In this document: in pieces, positions 968-17,773 of the stretch | How the letters are laid out: each line of letters opens with the position of its first letter | How positions within the stretch are numbered: the first letter of the stretch is position 1 | Assembly (NCBI GenBank): GCA_038040345.1 | Contig: JBBPIQ010000001.1 | Coordinates: 645,927-709,926 of the forward strand | Length of the DNA: 64,000 nucleotides | Origin: Chloroflexota bacterium | Lineage (GTDB): Bacteria; Chloroflexota; Limnocylindria; P2-11E | Direction of reading: 5' to 3' | Position numbers and translations under genes: made by a program | Notes under the pieces: generated by a model | The model's database searches: none | What the model saw: only the letters and a program-made list of their open reading frames with translations | Told to the model about the DNA's origin: nothing

Positions 968-2122
968 TCACTTCTTGAGCGGAAGTGCGAGCGCGAACAC
1001 GCTGCCGGCGTCGGAGCTCGTTTCGAGCCAGAGCCGTCCACCATGACGCTTCGCCAGCTGCTGGCTGATGTGCAGACCGAGGCCGGTGCCGTGAACGTCG
1101 GACGTCCTCGATGTCCGATAGAACGGCGTGAAGAGCATGGAGCGTTCTGCTGCCGGCACGCCGACCCCGTGGTCCGCCACCCGAACGTGCGCCTCGGCAC
1201 CGTGCACCGAAAGCGAGATTTCGATGGGAGCCTTCTCGGCGCTGTACTTGATCGCGTTGTCCAACAGGTTGTCCAGGATCTCGGCGATCCGCTTGGGATC
1301 TCCGCGCACCGCGACGGCGGCGCGCGGCTGCTCGAACGTGATGCGCGCGGTCTCACCGTACTGGTGCCTGGCCATCGCCGCTGCAACGGCGCCGACGAAA
1401 TCGAAGGCCACGACGTTGAGGCTCAGCGCGTTTGAAGCGAGGCGCGACTGGTTCAGGAGCTCGGAGATCATCCGGGCCATGCGATCCATTTGCGCCAGGG
1501 CGCTGTCGATCGCCCCCCGCTCGCGCGCCGGATCCTGTCCGATGTAGCGGCGCGCCAGTTGTGTTTGCCCCCTCATGACGGTCAACGGCGCGCGCAGCTC
1601 GTGGACGACCGTTGCGAAGAGATCGGTAGCGGGCCAGTCGGCGACAAGGTGCTGAACGATGTCCGGAAACACTTTGATCCCCTCGTCACCCGGTTCGGTC
1701 CTGGTCTCCGCGCCCTGCTCTGCCGCCGGCCGCTCCACGACGCTCTTTACGGTCGCAAGGAACTCTTCGACGACGAACGGTTTGCCCACGATCCCCGCGA
1801 AGCTCGCGGCGCGGCTCCGTTCCGAAGTTCCAGCCCGCGCTTCGGCGAGGTCGTCGTTGTCCGCGCTGAACATCAAGACAGGGAGATCCGGGTGTGCGCG
1901 CCGGATCGCGACCGCGTCGTCCCACGAGCGGCCCTCGCCGCTGCTACGGACTTCGCCGTCGAGGATCACGAGGCGAGGTTGCCACCGCTCGACGGCGGCG
2001 CCGATTTGCGCGTGGTCGGCGATCGTCACCGGCCGATAGCCGGCCTCGTCCAGCAGCCCGCCCACGAGCTTGCTCAGATTGACGTCGTCCTCGACGACGA
2101 GCACGTTGTTCGGCGCATCCAT
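968..2122 (-). CDS. hybrid sensor histidine kinase with an N-terminal receiver domain, then HisKA and HATPase_c domains
   Basis: N-terminus is receiver-like (VLVVEDD...LVILDGEV...PVLMFSAD). This is followed by an H-box (VVHELRAPLTVM) and ATPase motifs (DNAIKYS, GTGLGLHISQQLAKRHGG). Confidence 0.85.
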   Translation of the reverse strand: MDAPNNVLVVEDDVNLSKLVGGLLDEAGYRPVTIADHAQIGAAVERWQPRLVILDGEVRSSGEGRSWDDAVAIRRAHPDLPVLMFSADNDDLAEARAGTSERSRAASFAGIVGKPFVVEEFLATVKSVVERPAAEQGAETRTEPGDEGIKVFPDIVQHLVADWPATDLFATVVHELRAPLTVMRGQTQLARRYIGQDPARERGAIDSALAQMDRMARMISELLNQSRLASNALSLNVVAFDFVGAVAAAMARHQYGETARITFEQPRAAVAVRGDPKRIAEILDNLLDNAIKYSAEKAPIEISLSVHGAEAHVRVADHGVGVPAAERSMLFTPFYRTSRTSDVHGTGLGLHISQQLAKRHGGRLWLETSSDAGSVFALALPLKK

Positions 2123-2304
2123 CTCGTCCTCCAGCCAGCCGTACGTCGGCCGGCCCTCCCAGAAGAGCGGCGGGTGTCGCCCCTCCCTCAGCGAGACCCC
2201 ATGCTCGGCTCAAGCGGCCGGGACCGCATGACGATTTCGTAACGTCGGAAAACTGGCCGGTTTTCGGGGACTTTTTGGGGGCCCAGAGGCGAGCGCTAGG
2301 GAGC

Positions 2305-3054
2305 CTAGGTGTCCTCGACGGCGGACGCGCTGACAAATCGATAGCCGGCGCCCGGGACGGTCTCGATGTACCGAGGCTTATGCCAGTCGTTCTGAAGCTT
2401 CGCGCGCAGGGCTCGCACGTGCCGGTCCACGACGTTGCTCTCGATCACGAAGTCGGTGCCCCAAAGCGCGTCGAGGATCTGCTCGCGCGTGAGGGTGCTC
2501 CCGGCGTTGGCGGCGAGAAGGTAGAGGAGTGCCTGCTCGAGCGAAGTCAGGTGCAGCTCGTGCTCTCCGGCGAGCACCTTTCGGTTGAGAACGTCGATCT
2601 CGAGGTCGCCGATGCGCAGCCGCGGGACGAGCTCTCCGGCACTGCCATGTGTCCGACGAATAACGGCGCGTGCGCGCGCGACCAGGTCGTCCGGAACGAA
2701 AGGGATCCCGATGTAATCGTCCGCGCCTCGCTCGAAGGCGTCGAGCTTCCCTCGGAGATCGCTGCGGCGGGTGAGCGCGATCACGCCCATGGGCCCGTGA
2801 TTTCGCGCCTCGTCGACGAGCTGGATCCCGGCGCCGGCCTCGGTGTCGATGTCGACCAGCAGGAGATGGGGCTTCCAGTTCACGATCGAAGCCTTAGCGT
2901 CGTTGACGGTCTCTGTGATTCGGCGGAGGTAATGACCGTGCCGCAGGGTCAGGTCAATCGTGTTCGCCAGTGGCCTGTCACTGATGACCAGGAGCACGCG
3001 GGCCGCTCGCTCAGACCCTTTTGCGGGCGGCGCGGCCGCCCCAGCCTCTGCCAT
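2305..3054 (-). CDS. OmpR/PhoB-family response regulator with a winged-helix domain
   Basis: Receiver domain (RVLLVISDRP...LLLVDID) plus a winged-helix C-terminus (LTSLEQALLYLL...RHVRALRAKL...ETVPGAGYRF). Same strand as the kinase gene next to it. Confidence 0.85.
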   Translation of the reverse strand: MAEAGAAAPPAKGSERAARVLLVISDRPLANTIDLTLRHGHYLRRITETVNDAKASIVNWKPHLLLVDIDTEAGAGIQLVDEARNHGPMGVIALTRRSDLRGKLDAFERGADDYIGIPFVPDDLVARARAVIRRTHGSAGELVPRLRIGDLEIDVLNRKVLAGEHELHLTSLEQALLYLLAANAGSTLTREQILDALWGTDFVIESNVVDRHVRALRAKLQNDWHKPRYIETVPGAGYRFVSASAVEDT

Positions 3055-3063
3055 AACCCCATG

Positions 3064-3636
3064 TTAGGCCCCGCTGTTCTCGTAAATACGCACGCCGAGG
3101 TCGGTGCTTAGCGGGAGCGGCCAGCCAAGGGGATCGCGCCCGACCGCCCGGGGATCGTCGCCATAGCTGCCAAGGAGCACCAGGAGACCCGCGTGAGTGC
3201 CGACCGGCGCCCCGATCCACACCAAACCGACCGGGCGGCTGGCCCCTTGGTCCTCGACGGACCCCTCCGAGAGAGGCGGTCGAGGACGGCCGCCAGCATT
3301 GATACCAGATTCGGTCACGGCGAGGCGGAAGGACGAAGGCGGGCTCTGCGAGCGCTCGGTGATCCTCGGCCCGTAGTGCTTCGGGACTGCCCAGCTGGAG
3401 ACCAATGGTTCGAGAGCCGCGTGTTGCGCCGCATCGGTCTCGGTCGTTTCTCCCACGTGGACTGCCCTGAGCATCGCTACGTCGCGTTGGTCGTCGACGC
3501 TAGTCAGCAGAGGGATGGCGGGTTCGATGCCGTGCGGCGACTCCGCGACGATTCGCGCGGCGGCGCCGTCCACGTCCGCGGCGAGCAGCCGGAACTCCTC
3601 GAGCACGAAGAGATGGATGGGGTTATCGGTAGACAT
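3064..3636 (-). CDS. hypothetical protein; first gene of the putative operon containing the response regulator and histidine kinase
   Basis: A coherent 190-aa ORF with no obvious sequence bias. I chose the start at the internal Met MSTDNPIHLFVLEE. I recognise no domain. Confidence 0.35.
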   Translation of the reverse strand: MSTDNPIHLFVLEEFRLLAADVDGAAARIVAESPHGIEPAIPLLTSVDDQRDVAMLRAVHVGETTETDAAQHAALEPLVSSWAVPKHYGPRITERSQSPPSSFRLAVTESGINAGGRPRPPLSEGSVEDQGASRPVGLVWIGAPVGTHAGLLVLLGSYGDDPRAVGRDPLGWPLPLSTDLGVRIYENSGA

Positions 3637-3667
3637 GTCCCAAACCTTGACCCTCGGCGGCGTCCTT

Positions 3668-3763
3668 GTCATGACCTTGCCGTCACGCCACCGCTAAATG
3701 ACCGATTCGTCATGACTCGAGGCGCTCGCCTTCGTGTATGGGGGGTGACCGAACGGTCATGAC
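3668..3763. promoter_or_regulatory. three copies of the self-complementary 8-mer GTCATGAC (3668-3675, 3709-3716, 3756-3763) in the divergent intergenic region upstream of the ice-binding-like gene
   Basis: Read directly in the sequence: tgtcatgacc, cgtcatgact, ggtcatgaca. The motif has 50% GC, which makes it unusual in this GC-rich DNA. Candidate operator sites. Confidence 0.45.
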
Positions 3764-3837
3764 ACGGGCGACCACACGGTCGACTATTCGGCGCAGACAG
3801 ACACGCCGCGCAGTGGGCGCGCAAGGGAGCATCAAGC

Positions 3838-4836
3838 ATGAACAACTCAAGGGCAATCGTCGCTACGATCGGCATCGCGTTCGTCATTGCGATCGGCGCG
3901 ATGGCAGGCACCGCAGCAAATGCGGCAAACCCGCCCGTCGGCCTCGGAAGCGCCGCAACATACTCGGTGCTCGCCGGCACGCCATCCATCACGAACACTG
4001 GCGCCACCACCATCGACAGAGACGTCGGCATCCACCCCGCAGACTCGATCATAGGATTCCCGCCCGGAATTATCGGCGGAACAGTTCACGCGGGCGACGC
4101 CGTCGCGCTTCAGGCCAAGTCCGACCTCACTGTTGCTTACTTAGATGCGGCGGGCAGACCTGTGACGGCTAACCACTCAGCGCTCGGCGGGCTCACCCTC
4201 GTCGGCGGCGTGTACAACGCCAACGGCGCCACGCTCGGCCTCACGGGCACGCTCACACTCAATGGCCAGGGCGATCCGAACTCCGTCTGGATCTTCCAGG
4301 CCACGTCTGATCTCGTGACGGCATCGACGAGCTCCGTCGTGTTCATCAACGGCGGGAGCCCCTGCAACGTCTTCTGGCAGGTCACGAGCTCAGCGACTCT
4401 GGGATCGGGCTCTCACTTCGTTGGAACGATCCTGGCCCTGGACTCCATCACATTGGCCAATGGCGTCACCGTCAACGGCAGAGCGCTGGCACGGAATGGC
4501 CTGGTCAGTTTGATCAACGACACCTTCATCACGTCCACGTGCAACGCTGCCGCGCCGGTGGTCGTCCCCCCGGGGACGCGGCCACCGTTCACGCCCGGCC
4601 CGACCGCGACACCTGTGCCGGCGCCGATCACCACGTTCACTCCCGCTCCCGTGGTCGCACCCACGGCTGCACCAGTTGCCGCCGTTCCGACCGCTAAGCC
4701 TGCAGCAGTCGCCGGTACGCAACGGCTGCCATCGACGAGCACAAATGACCCGGCAGGTCCGCTCACGATGCTCGGCGTCGCACTGACCGGCATCGGGATC
4801 CTCCTGCTGCGCGGTCGAACGACTCGGCACCTTTAG
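3838..4836 (+). CDS. secreted ice-binding-family (DUF3494) protein with a Pro/Thr/Ala-rich linker and a C-terminal LPSTST + transmembrane + basic-tail sorting signal
   Basis: Signal peptide (IVATIGIAFVIAIGAMAG). The DUF3494 ice-binding-family motifs are present in order: GLGSAATYSVLAG, AYLDAAGRP, GGLTLVGGVY, VWIFQA, NVFWQV, HFVGTILAL...NGRALA. A ribosome-binding site agggag lies 8 nt upstream of ATG 3838. The C-terminus is QRLPSTSTNDPAGPLTMLGVALTGIGILLLRGRTTRHL. Confidence 0.8.
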   Translation: MNNSRAIVATIGIAFVIAIGAMAGTAANAANPPVGLGSAATYSVLAGTPSITNTGATTIDRDVGIHPADSIIGFPPGIIGGTVHAGDAVALQAKSDLTVAYLDAAGRPVTANHSALGGLTLVGGVYNANGATLGLTGTLTLNGQGDPNSVWIFQATSDLVTASTSSVVFINGGSPCNVFWQVTSSATLGSGSHFVGTILALDSITLANGVTVNGRALARNGLVSLINDTFITSTCNAAAPVVVPPGTRPPFTPGPTATPVPAPITTFTPAPVVAPTAAPVAAVPTAKPAAVAGTQRLPSTSTNDPAGPLTMLGVALTGIGILLLRGRTTRHL

Positions 4837-4911
4837 CGAGCCACGCGCGACAGACCGCCAAGCAAAGTCCCGAATCCACGGACTTGCTTGGCGGTCTTGC
4901 ATGACCGTCTG

Positions 4912-4919
4912 GTCATGAC
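4912..4919. promoter_or_regulatory. GTCATGAC palindrome (with a GCATGACC near-copy at 4899-4906) about 30 bp upstream of the YggT gene start
   Basis: The sequence reads gcatgaccgtctggtcatgact. Same motif as upstream of the ice-binding-like gene. Confidence 0.4.
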
Positions 4920-4949
4920 TGGCCGGGGTCCTTGGCCCAGGATTCAGAC

Positions 4950-5342
4950 ATGACAACCTCCCAACCAACAAAGACACCCGCCCCGGCACCGCCTCGTAGC
5001 TCGACGAGCGTGAACGTCCCGGCCGCACCCGCGCGAAACGCTTCGATGTGGACCGCGAGCCGCGTTATCGCGCTGGTGTTCACCGTCATCGAAGTGCTCT
5101 TGCTTGTTCGATTCACGTTCAAGCTTCTGGGAGCGAACGCGGATCAGCCGTTCGTGTCGGCGATCTATGGAATCACCGAGCCGCTCGTCGGCCCGTTCCG
5201 CGGCATCTTCGCCCAGCCCGCGGGCACGCCGGTCGTCGAGATCGCCGCGCTTCTCTCAATCGTCTTCTTCGTACTCGTCGCAGCCCTCATCGTCGCGCTG
5301 GTTCGCGCCTATACCGGCCGACGCGCCGTATCGAACCCGTGA
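4950..5342 (+). CDS. YggT-family membrane protein
   Basis: YggT/Ycf19 signature LLLVRFTFKLLGAN..QPFVSAIYGITEPLVGPFRGIF, followed by a transmembrane helix. ATG 4950 is preferred; the track begins at TTG 4932. Confidence 0.7.
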   Translation: MTTSQPTKTPAPAPPRSSTSVNVPAAPARNASMWTASRVIALVFTVIEVLLLVRFTFKLLGANADQPFVSAIYGITEPLVGPFRGIFAQPAGTPVVEIAALLSIVFFVLVAALIVALVRAYTGRRAVSNP

Positions 5343-5512
5343 TGAGCGACTCGAAGACCGCGCGACCTCGTAACCAGCTCGGGGAGCCGGCGACTACAAC
5401 GCCTGAGGAGACGATCGCCCGGCTCAAGGAGAAGGTCTCCAAGAACCACGGCGCCGCGAATCGCGAACGGATCCAGGCGCAGATCTCACAGGAACGGGCG
5501 CCTTCGGTCTAG
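5342..5512 (+). CDS. small hypothetical protein (56 aa) whose start overlaps the YggT stop (ATGA-type overlap)
   Basis: ATG at 5342 overlaps the YggT TGA at 5340-5342. Hydrophilic product MSDSKTARPRNQ...ERIQAQISQERAPSV. Followed immediately by a strong terminator hairpin. Confidence 0.3.
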   Translation: MSDSKTARPRNQLGEPATTTPEETIARLKEKVSKNHGAANRERIQAQISQERAPSV

Positions 5513-5537
5513 GAACCCCTTAGTCCGGGCGTTAGAA

Positions 5538-5564
5538 AAGAGGGGCGGTCGTTCCGCCCCTCTT
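5538..5564 (+). terminator. rho-independent terminator hairpin
   Basis: Sequence aagaggggcgg-tcgtt-ccgcccctctt: a perfect 11-bp GC-rich stem with a 5-nt loop, followed by the T-rich stretch ccttta. Confidence 0.55.
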
Positions 5565-5795
5565 CCTTTACGCGATGACGAGGCGTCTCAGACGGATGCC
5601 GATGCCTTCACGGTGGATCTCCTTGAGCGAGAACTTTCGGCGTGGGTGTCTTCTCCAAACGGAACGGAATGAGGTCATGAAGGATCCCGAGGGACGTGAG
5701 CGCAAGGCCCACGAGGGCCGCGCCGATCAAGGTGAAGTCCGAACCGAGGAGCTCTGCCACGCTGCCAAAAGTGTGGATGTGCGACCAGCGCGTGC

Positions 5796-5813
5796 CATGA
5801 CGAAAGCGTCATG
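5796..5813. promoter_or_regulatory. palindrome CATGACG-aaag-CGTCATG, a spaced variant of the GTCATGAC motif
   Basis: The sequence reads gccatgacgaaagcgtcatgaaa. It lies in the 670-bp intergenic region upstream of the LPSTS small-protein gene. Confidence 0.35.
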
Positions 5814-6190
5814 AAACGCAGTGACTCCGAGCCTACTGTCGAGCGGTGCTAGATATCTGGTTCGTCGCCGGCATCGCGCTCGGCACCATCGTCACAGGCT
5901 TCTGCGCGATCGGCTCTTTCGATCGCGGTTCCGACAGCGTCCAGCGCCGGTCATGGAACCGCGAGCACGCCGCGCGCAAGCGCGCGCTCCTCGCCTCTCG
6001 CCCGACGATCCGCGCGACCGCTCAGCACACGCCTCCGGGAGCCATCCCCAAGGCGAGCTGACGCCCTTCGCAAGCAAGCGGTGCGTATGAGTTAGCGGCC
6101 CAATTCCGTATGACATCAGAGGAACGAAAGTGTGACGACGCACGCGGTAGTTCCGACGACGATGGACTCGGGAAGAGAAATGGAGTCGTC

Positions 6191-6646
6191 ATGAAATTCG
6201 CCGCGTTGATCGTCGCCGTCATCCTGATGGCGTTCGGTTCTAAACAAGTCGCTGCTGCTGACGTGAGCGTATGTGGCCAGCTCAATGCGTACCAGACCGC
6301 GACGTCGAAGGATGGCAAGCCGCAGAACACAATCCTGTCGCTCAAGACATCTTTGGGGTTCGTCGATTACCAGCTCGTGCTGAACGGAACGGTCCCCGCG
6401 GATCTGGCTCAGAATCCGGCGCTGCCGGAGATCCTCCAGCTAACGGGCCGCACCGTTGAGGGCATCAACACGGTCGCCGATTACACGGTCACGCGAGTCG
6501 CGTCATGTTCGTTGCCGAGCACGAGCACCGCCGCGGCGACGACGGACGCCGGTCTCTTTGGGTCGATCGCGAGCGCTCTAGCCGTCCTGTTCGCTTTCGC
6601 CGGCGCTCTCGTGACCGGCGTGAACCACCGGAAAGCCGCCTCGTAG
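6191..6646 (+). CDS. small secreted protein (151 aa) with a C-terminal LPSTST + transmembrane + basic-tail sorting signal
   Basis: Ribosome-binding site ggag 5 nt upstream of ATG 6191. Signal peptide MKFAALIVAVILMAFGSKQVAAA. The C-terminus is SCSLPSTSTAAATTDAGLFGSIASALAVLFAFAGALVTGVNHRKAAS, with the same LPSTST hexapeptide as the ice-binding-like protein. Confidence 0.6.
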   Translation: MKFAALIVAVILMAFGSKQVAAADVSVCGQLNAYQTATSKDGKPQNTILSLKTSLGFVDYQLVLNGTVPADLAQNPALPEILQLTGRTVEGINTVADYTVTRVASCSLPSTSTAAATTDAGLFGSIASALAVLFAFAGALVTGVNHRKAAS

Positions 6647-6733: not shown

Positions 6734-8188
6734 GTGGAAAGCACGCAGACGCAGGCGCCGACGGGCGCCGACGGTCGGCACGAACGCCAGCTGATCGCCG
6801 GTCGCTACCGGCTTGCGTCCTTTCATCGAGGCGACGAGACCACCGAGGTCTGGCGTGCGCTCGACGAATCCACCACCCAGGTCGTCAGTCTCGAGTTCTT
6901 GCGCGACTCCGATCCGGCGGGCAAGGAGCGCTTTCTCGCGGGAGGGCGCCGCTTGGCGTCGGTCCAGCAGCCGTCTGTCATGCGAGTGGCCGCGATCCAC
7001 GACGACCACGACGGGACCTTCATCGTGTTCGAGCACCTTGTCCACATACCCGTACCGCTCGAATGGCTGAAGCCGGCCGTCGAAGCGCCGCTGCCTCTTT
7101 TGAAGGTCGCCGAGCCGACGGCGATAGAGACGCCGCCGGTCGCGTCAGAGGCGGCGGAGCTCGCGGTCGCCGCCCCACCCGATCCCACGGCGGCACCCGG
7201 CGACCATGGACTCAGCTTGTTGCTCTTCGCGCTCCGCTCGCGGGAGCTTTCGCTCATCGACCAGGCTCTTTTACAGGAATCGGCGATCGAGTTCCTCGAC
7301 GTCGTTCTCGCCGAGTTCAAGGCGGTGCGGCTGGACCCAGACTTGGTGCCCGACGCCCGCTCCTTCGTGGTCTCGCTGCTCACGTCGGGGCCGAGACGCG
7401 CCGCCTCCGTCGTCGGGCGGATCGCGACGATTCGCCCGCGTTTCCGAATCGGGACTCCCCGCATGTCACAGCCCAAGCAACCGAAGCAACCCAAACAACC
7501 GAAGGCGGTCGCTGGCCCGTGGCTCAAAGAGACGCCCGTGGCGGAGGCCAAGCCCCTCAAAGTGCCGAAGATGAAGGAACCGCGCGCTCCCCGTGCCGCA
7601 CGCGGACCTGGCATGCGAATCCGGTGGGGCCGCGTGCTCACACGTGGTCTGACGCTCGGTGTCCTCGCGGCCATCCTGGTCTCGCTGCCCCCGGCGATCG
7701 TCGGGAACCTCGGGGGCGTCGCCAACAACGTCGCGAACGTCGCCGGCAACATCGCGGGCCAGGTCAGCTCGACCATCAGCGAGAAGCTCGCGTCGGTCCA
7801 GTCCACACCGGGGCTCCAGCGCGCCAGCTTCGAGCTTCCGCCGCTGAGCGCGTACGGCGCCGCGTTCGAGTCACAGGCCCCGTATCCCCATGCGAGTCCG
7901 AACGGGACGGTCGAGTGGGTCGTCGCGCTCCGCAACACCGGCTCCGTGGGCTGGTACCGCGGGATCGATGGCGCGCAAGCCTCGCTTGCCCTCGCCGACG
8001 GAACCACCGCAGGCGTGCAAACGACGGACTTCGTCGGGCCGGGTCAGCTGGGCTGGTTCGTCGTCCACTTCCCAGCGCCGTCGCAGGCGGGCACCTCGAA
8101 AGTCCGGCTTCTTCCTCGGATCGACGGTCGCGGGTCCCTGCCCGACCTCGGCATCTACGCCACGGTCACGGTGTCGCCGAACCCGTAG
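6734..8188 (+). CDS. membrane protein with a degenerate kinase-like N-terminus lacking the Gly-rich loop, a PKQ repeat linker, one transmembrane helix, and an extracytoplasmic C-terminal domain
   Basis: The N-terminus resembles the N-lobe of Hanks-type Ser/Thr kinases (RYRL...VVSLEFLRD...VMRVAAIHDDHDGTFIVFEHL) but has no glycine loop or catalytic motifs. There is a (QPK)x4 repeat and a TM helix LTLGVLAAILVSLPPAIVG. The overlapping ORFs 6700-8196 (+) and 6823-8007 (-) I judged artefacts. Confidence 0.5.
   Translation: MESTQTQAPTGADGRHERQLIAGRYRLASFHRGDETTEVWRALDESTTQVVSLEFLRDSDPAGKERFLAGGRRLASVQQPSVMRVAAIHDDHDGTFIVFEHLVHIPVPLEWLKPAVEAPLPLLKVAEPTAIETPPVASEAAELAVAAPPDPTAAPGDHGLSLLLFALRSRELSLIDQALLQESAIEFLDVVLAEFKAVRLDPDLVPDARSFVVSLLTSGPRRAASVVGRIATIRPRFRIGTPRMSQPKQPKQPKQPKAVAGPWLKETPVAEAKPLKVPKMKEPRAPRAARGPGMRIRWGRVLTRGLTLGVLAAILVSLPPAIVGNLGGVANNVANVAGNIAGQVSSTISEKLASVQSTPGLQRASFELPPLSAYGAAFESQAPYPHASPNGTVEWVVALRNTGSVGWYRGIDGAQASLALADGTTAGVQTTDFVGPGQLGWFVVHFPAPSQAGTSKVRLLPRIDGRGSLPDLGIYATVTVSPNP
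7469..7504 (+). repeat. tandem 9-bp repeat encoding (PKQ)x4
   Basis: The sequence reads cagcccaagcaaccgaagcaacccaaacaaccgaag. Confidence 0.5.
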
Positions 8189-16438: not shown

Positions 16439-17773
16439 TTGCCGCGCGATGTCGAGGGGATCCCACTCGTCCACGCGCGCGCGCTCCCGGGTGGCCCCGT
16501 CGAGCGCGACTTCTATGAAACGATCAAGGCCGAGATCCTCGAACGGCTCCGCGCCGCGGTGCCGCTCGATGGGGTCTTCCTCGACATTCACGGAGCGATG
16601 AGCGTCGTCGGCATGACCGACGCTGAAGGCGATCTCGCAGCAGCGGTGCGCGAAGTCATCGGAATGGATGCGCTCGTCTCCGCGGCAATGGATCCTCACG
16701 GGAACATGTCGCGCCGCCTCATTGGCGCGCTCGATCTCGCGACATCGCATCGCATGTCTCCCCACGATGACGCGCCGCTCACCAGGACGCGGGCGGTCGC
16801 GAATCTCGTCCGCTGCTTGCGCGAGGGCGTTCGTCCACACAGAGCGTGGGTGCGCGTACCGATCTTGCTGGCGGGCGAGCGCGCCAGCACGCGCGACGAG
16901 CCGGCGCGCGGGATCTACGGAAGTCTCGCGGGGATCGAGGCGCGGCCGGGGATCATCGACGCCGCCGTGTGGATCGGATACGCCTGGGCCGACGAGCCAC
17001 GTTGCAGTGCCGCGGTCGTCGTGACCGGGACCGATCCGGAGGTCATCCAGCGCGAAGCGCTCTCTCTCGCCGAGCGCTACTGGAATGCGCGCGCCGATTT
17101 CAGCTTCAGCGTCCCCGCGGGCGACGCCGACTGGTGTATCGCGACAGGACTCGCCGCGACCGAACGTCCCTATTTCATCAGCGACTCGGGCGACAACCCC
17201 ACCGCGGGCGGAGCGGGCGACGTTGCCTACGTGCTCCAGCGGCTCCTCGCGCACCCGAACCTCGCTGCGGGGCGCGCCACAGCGATCTGGGCGAGCGTCG
17301 TCGACCCTATTGCGGTCGCGCGGTGCGTCGCGGCCGGAGAAGGCGCCGACGTGGACGTGACCGTCGGCGGTGCGTTCGGCTCGGCCCACGGCAAAGTGGC
17401 CCTTCGAGGAAAGGTCGGTCGCGTCCTCGAAGGTGACCCGGTCGGCGGCGATGTCGCGGTCGTGGAGTCAGGCGGAGTTCGGGCGATCCTCACGACCCGC
17501 CGCAAGCCGTACCACTTCGTCCGCGATCTTCACGCGCTCGGTCTCGATCCGGCGCGGCATGACCTCACCGTCGTGAAGATCGGCTACCTCGTCCCCGATC
17601 TCTTCGGCGCCGCGAAAGGCTGGATCCTGGCGTTGACGCCGGGCGGCGTCGATCAGGACATCGTGCGACTCGGCCACCGCCATCTCGAGCGTCCGATCTA
17701 TCCATTGGATCCGCGCATGCCCTCGCCCGATCTCGCGCCGGAGCTCTTGAGCCGGTCGGTCAGCTCCGCGTGA
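16439..17773 (+). CDS. M81-family (MlrC/microcystinase-C-like) metallopeptidase; the true N-terminus is probably encoded from about 16328
   Basis: DUF1485 and DUF1446 regions are present (FISDSGDNPTAGGAGD). The conserved MlrC N-terminus RVAIGGIHIESSTFSP is encoded in-frame at 16325-16375, 2 nt after the FHA gene stop. I found no ATG, GTG or TTG between the in-frame stop at 16262 and the TTG at 16439. Confidence 0.75.
   Translation: MPRDVEGIPLVHARALPGGPVERDFYETIKAEILERLRAAVPLDGVFLDIHGAMSVVGMTDAEGDLAAAVREVIGMDALVSAAMDPHGNMSRRLIGALDLATSHRMSPHDDAPLTRTRAVANLVRCLREGVRPHRAWVRVPILLAGERASTRDEPARGIYGSLAGIEARPGIIDAAVWIGYAWADEPRCSAAVVVTGTDPEVIQREALSLAERYWNARADFSFSVPAGDADWCIATGLAATERPYFISDSGDNPTAGGAGDVAYVLQRLLAHPNLAAGRATAIWASVVDPIAVARCVAAGEGADVDVTVGGAFGSAHGKVALRGKVGRVLEGDPVGGDVAVVESGGVRAILTTRRKPYHFVRDLHALGLDPARHDLTVVKIGYLVPDLFGAAKGWILALTPGGVDQDIVRLGHRHLERPIYPLDPRMPSPDLAPELLSRSVSSA

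Follow-up and report, generated by a model that had tools for sequence, protein, structure and literature searches.

The stretch of DNA considered here is a 64-kb window (positions 645,927 to 709,926 of contig JBBPIQ010000001.1, Chloroflexota assembly GCA_038040345.1). Close to its beginning, copies of a short inverted repeat, CATGAC-N6-GTCATG, lie between the genes of a signalling cassette, an ice-binding-like protein and small membrane proteins. The genes concerned are listed below; leaderless layout denotes a start codon at a fixed distance from the repeat.

968-2122, minus strand: probably cytoplasmic histidine kinase, REC-HisKA-HATPase (Pfam/NCBIfam)
2305-3054, minus strand: OmpR/PhoB-family response regulator (Pfam Trans_reg_C and a weak Response_reg match; best PDB match KdpE)
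3064-3636, minus strand: 190-aa protein, first gene of the cassette, leaderless layout
3838-4836, plus strand: ice-binding-like (DUF3494) secreted protein (Pfam PF11999, E = 9e-56)
4950-5342, plus strand: YggT-family membrane protein (Pfam PF02325), leaderless layout
5342-5512, plus strand: open reading frame (ORF) of 56 aa, overlapping the YggT stop codon
5608-5760, minus strand: 50-aa membrane protein, divergent from the 71-aa gene
5846-6061, plus strand: 71-aa single-pass membrane protein, GTG start, leaderless layout

The 190-aa, regulator and kinase genes form a minus-strand operon that is divergent from the ice-binding-like gene. An earlier, sequence-only reading of the window had picked out the 8-mer GTCATGAC around the ice-binding-like gene and the genes downstream of it. 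The best-conserved target, the divergent minus-strand operon, was missed, as was a sixth site before the kinase gene. Furthermore, the gene 3' of 5796-5813 had been labelled as encoding an LPSTS protein. It encodes the 71-aa membrane protein, which has no LPSTS; the label is a mix-up, because LPSTS sits at the C-terminus of the ice-binding-like protein.

The inverted repeat in the window and in related loci

An exact count over the window gives four copies of GTCATGAC, at 3668, 3709, 3756 and 4912, as the sequence-only reading had reported. Its expectation of 0.5 copies per 64 kb at ~70% GC was too low: the GC content is 66.8%, dinucleotide-preserving shuffles give 0.97 copies, and at least four copies occur in 2 of 100 shuffles. 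By itself, the count of the 8-mer is only marginally unusual. The flanks, when read, place each GTCATGAC at one end of an 18-bp inverted repeat, so that the 8-mer is not the unit. What recurs as a unit is an inverted repeat of 16-18 bp, (C)ATGAC-N6-GTCAT(G), of which the GTCATGAC words are the visible ends. A near-copy, GCATGACC, at 4899 and a spaced variant, CATGACG-aaag-CGTCATG, at 5796-5813 are both present as described. With at most one mismatch, CATGAC-N6-GTCATG has five matches in the window against 0.09 expected, a number reached in none of 100 shuffles, and ATGAC-N6-GTCAT has six against 1.12 expected. The earlier claim of non-random clustering thus holds for the palindrome.

A weight matrix that was trained on other loci only finds six strong sites, at 2225, 3668, 3695, 3742, 4898 and 5794, with scores of 20.7-25.4. 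All six are intergenic and lie inside 3.6 kb (2225-5815).

2228-2243 (22-bp match 2225-2246), minus strand: kinase site, a degenerate copy reading ATGACGATTTCGTAAC on the plus strand; score 20.7
3671-3686, minus strand: site 1, ATGACCTTGCCGTCAC; 18-bp form CATGAC CTTGCC GTCACG at 3670-3687; 8-mer at 3668-3675
3698-3713, plus strand: site 2, ATGACCGATTCGTCAT; 18-bp form AATGAC CGATTC GTCATG at 3697-3714; 8-mer at 3709-3716; points toward the ice-binding-like gene
3745-3760, plus strand: site 3, GTGACCGAACGGTCAT; 18-bp form GGTGAC CGAACG GTCATG at 3744-3761; 8-mer at 3756-3763
4901-4916, plus strand: site 4, ATGACCGTCTGGTCAT; 18-bp form CATGAC CGTCTG GTCATG at 4900-4917; 8-mer at 4912-4919
5797-5812, both directions: site 5, ATGACGAAAGCGTCAT; 18-bp form CATGAC GAAAGC GTCATG at 5796-5813; a single palindrome between two divergent small membrane-protein genes

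The weight-matrix scan of the other 60 kb of the window gave no convincing copy of the palindrome. The sole further match with a score above 10 is found at 17556-17577 (GGCATGACCTCACCGTCGTGAA), inside an MlrC-like peptidase gene. Its score of 17.4 is within the null range (maximum 19.5), and it was rejected as a chance match.

Related loci were obtained by scanning the 190-aa protein against one genome per species. The resulting 41 loci are all from soil metagenome-assembled genomes (MAGs) and are assigned to Chloroflexota / Candidatus (Ca.) Limnocylindria, three of them being binned under other phyla and probably mis-binned. These three (L002, L022 and L030, binned as Udaeobacter, Acidiferrales and Saccharimonadales) have the same cassette, motif and neighbours as the Limnocylindria contigs and most likely are binning errors in public MAGs.

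Across the loci, identity of the 190-aa protein ranges from 86% down to 46%, and the motif is conserved upstream of the orthologues over this whole range. The 16-mer is found at -50/-49 from the start codon of the 190-aa gene in most of the 41 loci. A second copy is usually located at ~-75, and the sequence between and around the copies diverges. The motif is also far from uniformly frequent: the 150 bp ahead of the 190-aa gene have 104 sites per 10 kb, and the density falls to 3.1 per 10 kb within 3 kb and to 0.57 beyond 3 kb, compared to a chance level of 0.18. The spacer is rigid. Exact ATGAC-N6-GTCAT occurs 74 times in 572 kb, whereas every other spacer from N0 to N12 gives 0-2 copies. Direct repeats arise only as a by-product of the terminal GTCATGAC.

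Proposed promoter layout behind the repeat

To describe the position of the repeat relative to genes, each site was oriented both ways and start codons were tabulated by their offset from the G of GTCATG. Of 294 site-directions, 82 have an ATG or GTG at one of the offsets 38 and 39, whereas the background is ~8 per offset; a few of the 82 are artefacts from the CATG of an adjacent site. Among 83 oriented sites, an A at offset 27, a T at offset 31 and a C right before the ATG are conserved. A and T belong to a -10-like hexamer, nAnnnT, located 26-31 nt past the G, which places the A at -11/-12 and the T at -7/-8 relative to the start codon. The consensus reads CATGACGG-N4-GTCATG(A/C)C, ~18 nt, nAnnnT, 6-7 nt, C|ATG.

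In bacteria, TANNNT ~12 nt upstream of the start codon marks leaderless genes (PMC3160421), and a signal of this type is present here at this distance. No Shine-Dalgarno sequence stands out in the upstream sequences that were read, of which no systematic scan was made. We infer that transcription most likely begins at the start codon and yields a leaderless mRNA; with the start placed there, the box would span ~-50 to -35 with its centre near -42. The A at -11/-12, the T at -7/-8 and the pyrimidine before the start are shared with leaderless promoters of high-GC bacteria. The difference is that here a whole small regulon appears to combine the leaderless layout with a fixed upstream box. A generic sigma-70 scan detected no consensus promoter in 2000-6400, which fits factor-dependent promoters.

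In the window, site 1 is the promoter-proximal box of the minus-strand operon, with the G of GTCATG at 3675 (minus strand), CAAGGT at 3649-3644 and the ATG at 3636 (offset 39). Site 4 is followed by the -10-like CAGGAT at 4938-4943 and by the YggT ATG at 4950 (offset 38), a layout that is shared with nine YggT orthologues. The sequence-only reading had placed the copy at 4912 about 30 bp before the YggT start; the distance to the likely ATG is 38 nt. Site 5 serves two genes, with TACTGT at 5834-5839 and the GTG at 5846 (offset 38) on the plus side, and CACACT at 5775-5770 and the GTG at 5760 (offset 41) on the minus side. Ten orthologues of the 71-aa membrane protein have the motif at offset 38/39.

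Site 3 is followed by the -10-like GACTAT at 3782-3787, a predicted transcription start near A3795, a leader of ~43 nt, the Shine-Dalgarno sequence AAGGGAG and the ATG at 3838. This block, including the ~43-nt leader, is conserved in L001, L002 and L004. Site 2 has a poor -10 in the window, and its equivalent in L006 appears to drive the ice-binding-like gene directly. The kinase site faces the histidine-kinase gene, with the -10-like GAGCAT at 2206-2201 (minus strand), a predicted transcription start near 2194 and a leader of ~72 nt. The kinase genes of other loci have the same site and GAGCAT, with the start codon at offset 38/39, i.e. in the leaderless layout.

One palindrome serves two divergent genes not only at site 5 of the window, but also in L001, L004 and L032; the gene pair at site 5 itself is also present in L001 and L004. 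The shared use in both directions argues for a DNA-level rather than an RNA-level element. As RNA, CATGAC-N6-GTCATG could pair as a 6-bp stem with a 6-nt loop and act as an attenuator, a processing site or a translational element. However, the site is located upstream of the inferred transcription start, both of its arms are conserved in sequence, which suggests base readout over pairing, and it has no match in Rfam. A mobile repeat would be expected to have conserved flanks, which is not the case, and a chance or compositional origin is countered by an enrichment of more than 500-fold at one fixed position. An RNA hairpin or a chance, compositional or mobile-repeat feature has next to no probability, and the palindrome is very probably a protein-binding promoter element.

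Two elements in a fixed arrangement, at an unchanging distance from the start site, would also be compatible with promoters of an extracytoplasmic function (ECF) sigma factor, with GTCATGAC as the -35 and GGTCA/CAnnnT as the -10 element. Some ECF promoters have a TGTCA/TGAC-like -35 and a GTC-containing -10 element. Yet a sigma factor does not need the distal half-site, although the full inverted repeat with its rigid N6 is conserved, and a single palindrome serves both directions. Moreover, no sigma or anti-sigma gene is present in the cassette of the window, and the genes conserved in the cassettes of related loci are homologous to the same three. An ECF-type promoter is therefore considered very unlikely.

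As a negative control, exact CATGAC-N6-GTCATGAC was searched across metagenome contigs, of which at least 120 match. Among the 120 listed, 116 are from unrelated organisms with a GC content of 32-72%, and in none of these 116 does the -10 signature occur together with a start codon at offset 38/39. Among the matches listed, just two contigs show the full architecture, and both belong to the four that bear the cassette genes. It is therefore the promoters of this lineage, and not the palindrome as such, that are characterized by this architecture.

The candidate regulator and its proposed mode of action

The proposed mechanism is that the palindrome is a protein-binding box built into a promoter family of Ca. 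Limnocylindria, and that a dimer of the OmpR/PhoB-family regulator (2305-3054) is its most likely binder. In nearly all loci the regulator gene is a direct neighbour of the 190-aa gene, and the kinase gene is usually present as well. The regulator appears to be the only DNA-binding protein that travels with the motif: Pfam and NCBIfam, together with fold prediction for the 190-aa protein, indicate no DNA-binding domain in the other two cassette proteins. The 190-aa protein was rejected as a DNA binder, its predicted ferredoxin-like/ABM fold having no helix-turn-helix. Across the loci, the regulator is 71-93% identical, compared to 46-86% for the neighbouring 190-aa protein, and its recognition helix NVVDRHVRALRAKLQ (region ESNVVDRHVRALRAKLQ) hardly varies, matching the invariant motif. 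The centre-to-centre distance of the half-sites is 11 bp, in line with the ~10-11 bp of OmpR/PhoB sites. This geometry is well suited to a dimer in which each winged-helix domain would contact one of the half-sites, which are one helical turn apart.

The receiver domain of the regulator is degenerate, as in atypical OmpR-family regulators. When the regulator is aligned with KdpE, I-S stands in place of the acidic pair and Ile in place of the conserved Lys. All 36 homologues share these replacements, and five of them have N, E or H at the phospho-Asp position. Judging from these residues, the regulator is probably not under ordinary phosphotransfer control. OmpR/PhoB regulators normally bind direct repeats in a head-to-tail arrangement. 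The half-sites found here are inverted instead, and because the site is symmetric and the receiver degenerate, binding would probably be head-to-head.

The closest analogue is HP1043 (HsrA) of Helicobacter pylori, an OmpR-family activator with a degenerate receiver that functions independently of phosphorylation (PMC8345958, PMC5253667). It recognizes two hexamers 11 bp apart that overlap promoters, and head-to-head binding has been proposed and modelled (PMC8345958, PMC5253667). The likeness thus consists of a degenerate-receiver OmpR/PhoB-family protein and two half-sites ~11 bp apart at a promoter; there is no sequence relationship past the family level. HP1043 is an orphan, whereas the regulator described here travels with an ABM-like partner and a REC-HisKA-HATPase kinase, whose gene follows that of the regulator in most loci. 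The HP1043 consensus is an AT-rich direct repeat, TTTAAG-N5-TTTAAG, in contrast to the GC-balanced clean inverted repeat of the present loci.

The Pho box, the PhoP box and other OmpR-family boxes likewise have half-sites one helical turn apart. They replace or overlap the -35 element, as the present box would if the genes are leaderless, and their targets include the regulator's own operon and envelope-related genes, as predicted here. They are direct repeats bound head-to-tail after phosphorylation, while the repeat found here is an inverted one and neither the acidic pair nor the conserved Lys is present in the receiver. Class II sites of CRP, FNR and NtcA resemble the box in being 5-N6-5 palindromes. 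They overlap the -35 element with a centre near -41.5/-42.5, and the centre of the present box would be at ~-42.5 if the genes are leaderless. They differ in the half-site, which is TGTGA, TTGAT or GTA instead of ATGAC, and the window genes scanned encode no CRP/FNR-family or cyclic nucleotide monophosphate-binding protein. A literature search for GTCATGAC in connection with response regulators returned only incidental primer and sequence matches, and a search on regulators of Limnocylindria returned nothing.

The binder could also be a different symmetric dimeric factor encoded elsewhere, for example a PadR-, CRP/FNR- or other helix-turn-helix protein, for which the cassette would be just one target. 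Inverted repeats of the 5-N6-5 type are typical of helix-turn-helix dimers. The PadR consensus is ATGT-N8-ACAT and that of CRP is TGTGA-N6-TCACA; the motif resembles the former in its sequence (ATGA-N8-TCAT) and the latter in its geometry. A single global factor would also simply explain why several paralogous cassettes per genome have one motif. However, no gene for such a regulator is located beside the motif cluster of the window (the flanks of related loci were searched with 11 window proteins only), and the sites are concentrated around the cassette rather than spread. The OmpR-type regulator with its invariant recognition helix is the protein that accompanies them, and an unlinked factor is considered improbable.

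Regarding the direction of control, the regulator is proposed to recruit RNA polymerase to otherwise weak promoters. It would thereby switch on its own operon (ABM-like protein, regulator and kinase), the kinase gene's own promoter, and the genes for YggT, the tiny membrane proteins and the ice-binding-like protein. The same binder at the same position could instead have the opposite effect, with the regulator (or an unmodified form of it) repressing from the -35 region and induction occurring by release. Promoter-overlapping palindromes are typical of repressors, and sigma region 4 would face competition from a protein that occupies -50 to -35. In the window and in many loci, the proximal half-site also runs into ATGACA, which matches TTGACA in five of six positions and is 17 bp away from the -10-like hexamer. 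This -35-like hexamer is not conserved, though, many loci reading GTCATGCTG or GTCATGCCG, and the weak -10 (nAnnnT only) together with the lack of a detected sigma-70 consensus promoter suggests that these promoters depend on assistance. With its centre near -42, the box would occupy the position that is classical for class II activators, and HP1043 activates. Repression is accordingly regarded as a minor, though real, possibility. The sequence-only reading had described the sites as the operator set of one dimeric regulator, which is largely right. The anatomy of a symmetric dimer site is borne out by the 74 N6 copies against 0-2 for other spacers. The proposed position, -50 to -35 relative to leaderless starts, suits an activator box no less than a repressor-type operator.

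Taken as a whole, the chain in which the adjacent atypical OmpR-family regulator binds the box, probably activating and autoregulating a small, mostly leaderless regulon, is judged reasonably probable on the sequence evidence. Several observations weigh against it. The clean inverted repeat departs from the usual head-to-tail direct repeats of OmpR/PhoB proteins. Site 2 has no convincing -10 in the window, the ice-binding-like and kinase genes of the window are not leaderless (leaders of ~43 and ~72 nt), and the proximal half-site in the window overlaps a fair -35-like hexamer, the above-mentioned ATGACA 17 bp from the -10. The MAG DATCPK holds at least three paralogous cassettes (L001, L003 and L006) with the same motif and a near-identical recognition helix, which implies cross-talk or one shared regulator encoded elsewhere. 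Finally, the organism is known only from MAGs.

A more specific and rather doubtful version of the mechanism is a three-part signalling module of a type not described before. In this module, a ligand- or haem-binding ABM-fold protein would control the pseudo-receiver OmpR-type regulator by contact instead of phosphorylation. Head-to-head binding of the regulator to a perfect palindrome would then drive a mini-regulon of tiny membrane proteins whose genes are nearly all leaderless, and the module would be expanded into several paralogous copies per genome in an abundant, uncultured soil lineage.

The system is a new regulon of a familiar kind, namely a two-component regulon box with some atypical features, and not a new kind of regulatory mechanism. 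To our knowledge, there is almost no molecular work on Ca. Limnocylindria, which are abundant in soil. The box would represent the first defined promoter/operator architecture and the first candidate regulon of this group. It is likely the second example, after HP1043, of a dead-receiver OmpR-family protein that reads a symmetric site, and through it a large family of ABM-like proteins that lack annotation would be connected with signal transduction.

Genes behind the box and neighbouring features

Gene families were counted by clustering the ORFs downstream of the sites.

190-aa protein: 42
Ice-binding-like protein: 15
Receiver-kinases: 14
YggT: 10
71-aa membrane protein: 6-10
Stand-alone OmpR-type DNA-binding domains: 5
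Another membrane protein, of 61 aa: 5
50-aa membrane protein: 3 (orthologues in L001, L004 and L013)
YeaQ/GlsB-like membrane proteins: 3
Small basic protein resembling the product of 5342-5512: 2

The set is compact and consists of membrane- or envelope-related genes plus the signalling cassette. From this gene content (YggT, tiny membrane proteins, YeaQ/GlsB-like and ice-binding-like proteins), an envelope- or membrane-related regulon is plausible. The cold-responsive regulon that had been suggested as an alternative finds no support: the only link is the Pfam name Ice_binding of one target, and no cold-shock genes are found among the clustered ORFs.

The 190-aa protein has no match in Pfam or NCBIfam. 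Its family comprises at least 850 metagenomic homologues, and all source names among 120 listed read 'hypothetical protein'. The AlphaFold2 model (predicted local distance difference test score of 78, alignment of 79 sequences) shows a tandem ferredoxin-like barrel, for which the PDB structures that match best, at template modelling scores of 0.4-0.5, are ABM-type monooxygenase-like proteins, HmoB and staphylococcal TRAP. The model thus gives a weak assignment to an ABM-like fold; the predicted fold is clearly not of a DNA-binding type. The protein may be a ligand- or haem-sensing partner of the regulator. The histidine kinase has a canonical N-terminal receiver domain. No sensor domain was detected in it by Pfam or NCBIfam, a search that included no transmembrane prediction. 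In several loci the kinase gene has its own copy of the box and the leaderless layout, and gene order and strand vary between loci.

Stand-alone OmpR-type DNA-binding domains without a receiver are encoded in L009 (5410-5800), L002 (12828-13130) and L007 (9454-9753). They are 42-49% identical to the regulator, located near the cassette, and each has a palindrome upstream. They may be competitors or co-regulators.

The ice-binding-like protein has a signal peptide and, after a Pro/Thr/Ala linker, a C-terminal LPSTS with a membrane anchor behind it. The C-terminal part (4560-4836) consists of the Pro/Thr/Ala-rich linker, LPSTS, a hydrophobic segment and an RGRTTRH tail. By its sequence, this part resembles a cell-wall sorting signal of the sortase type, although the LPSTS motif is unusual, in a member of the Chloroflexota. 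A look-up of the exact protein gave no record. A small GC hairpin, CGCGC-AGTGG-GCGCG, is located at 3807-3821, just before the Shine-Dalgarno sequence of the gene, and a long imperfect hairpin that the generic terminator scan missed is found 3' of the gene at 4853-4896. The same scan also missed a GC-rich hairpin with flanking A- and T-runs at 5540-5562, a bidirectional terminator by its structure, between the 56-aa ORF and the 50-aa gene.

Downstream of the 71-aa gene, a 151-aa predicted secreted protein (6191-6646) is encoded between this gene and that of a 484-aa protein (6734-8188). The 151-aa gene is absent from the otherwise collinear L001, which points to a local insertion. The 484-aa protein has no Pfam match; in L001, L002 and L004 its gene is close to the 71-aa gene, and in L008 and L021 it has a different place in the cluster.

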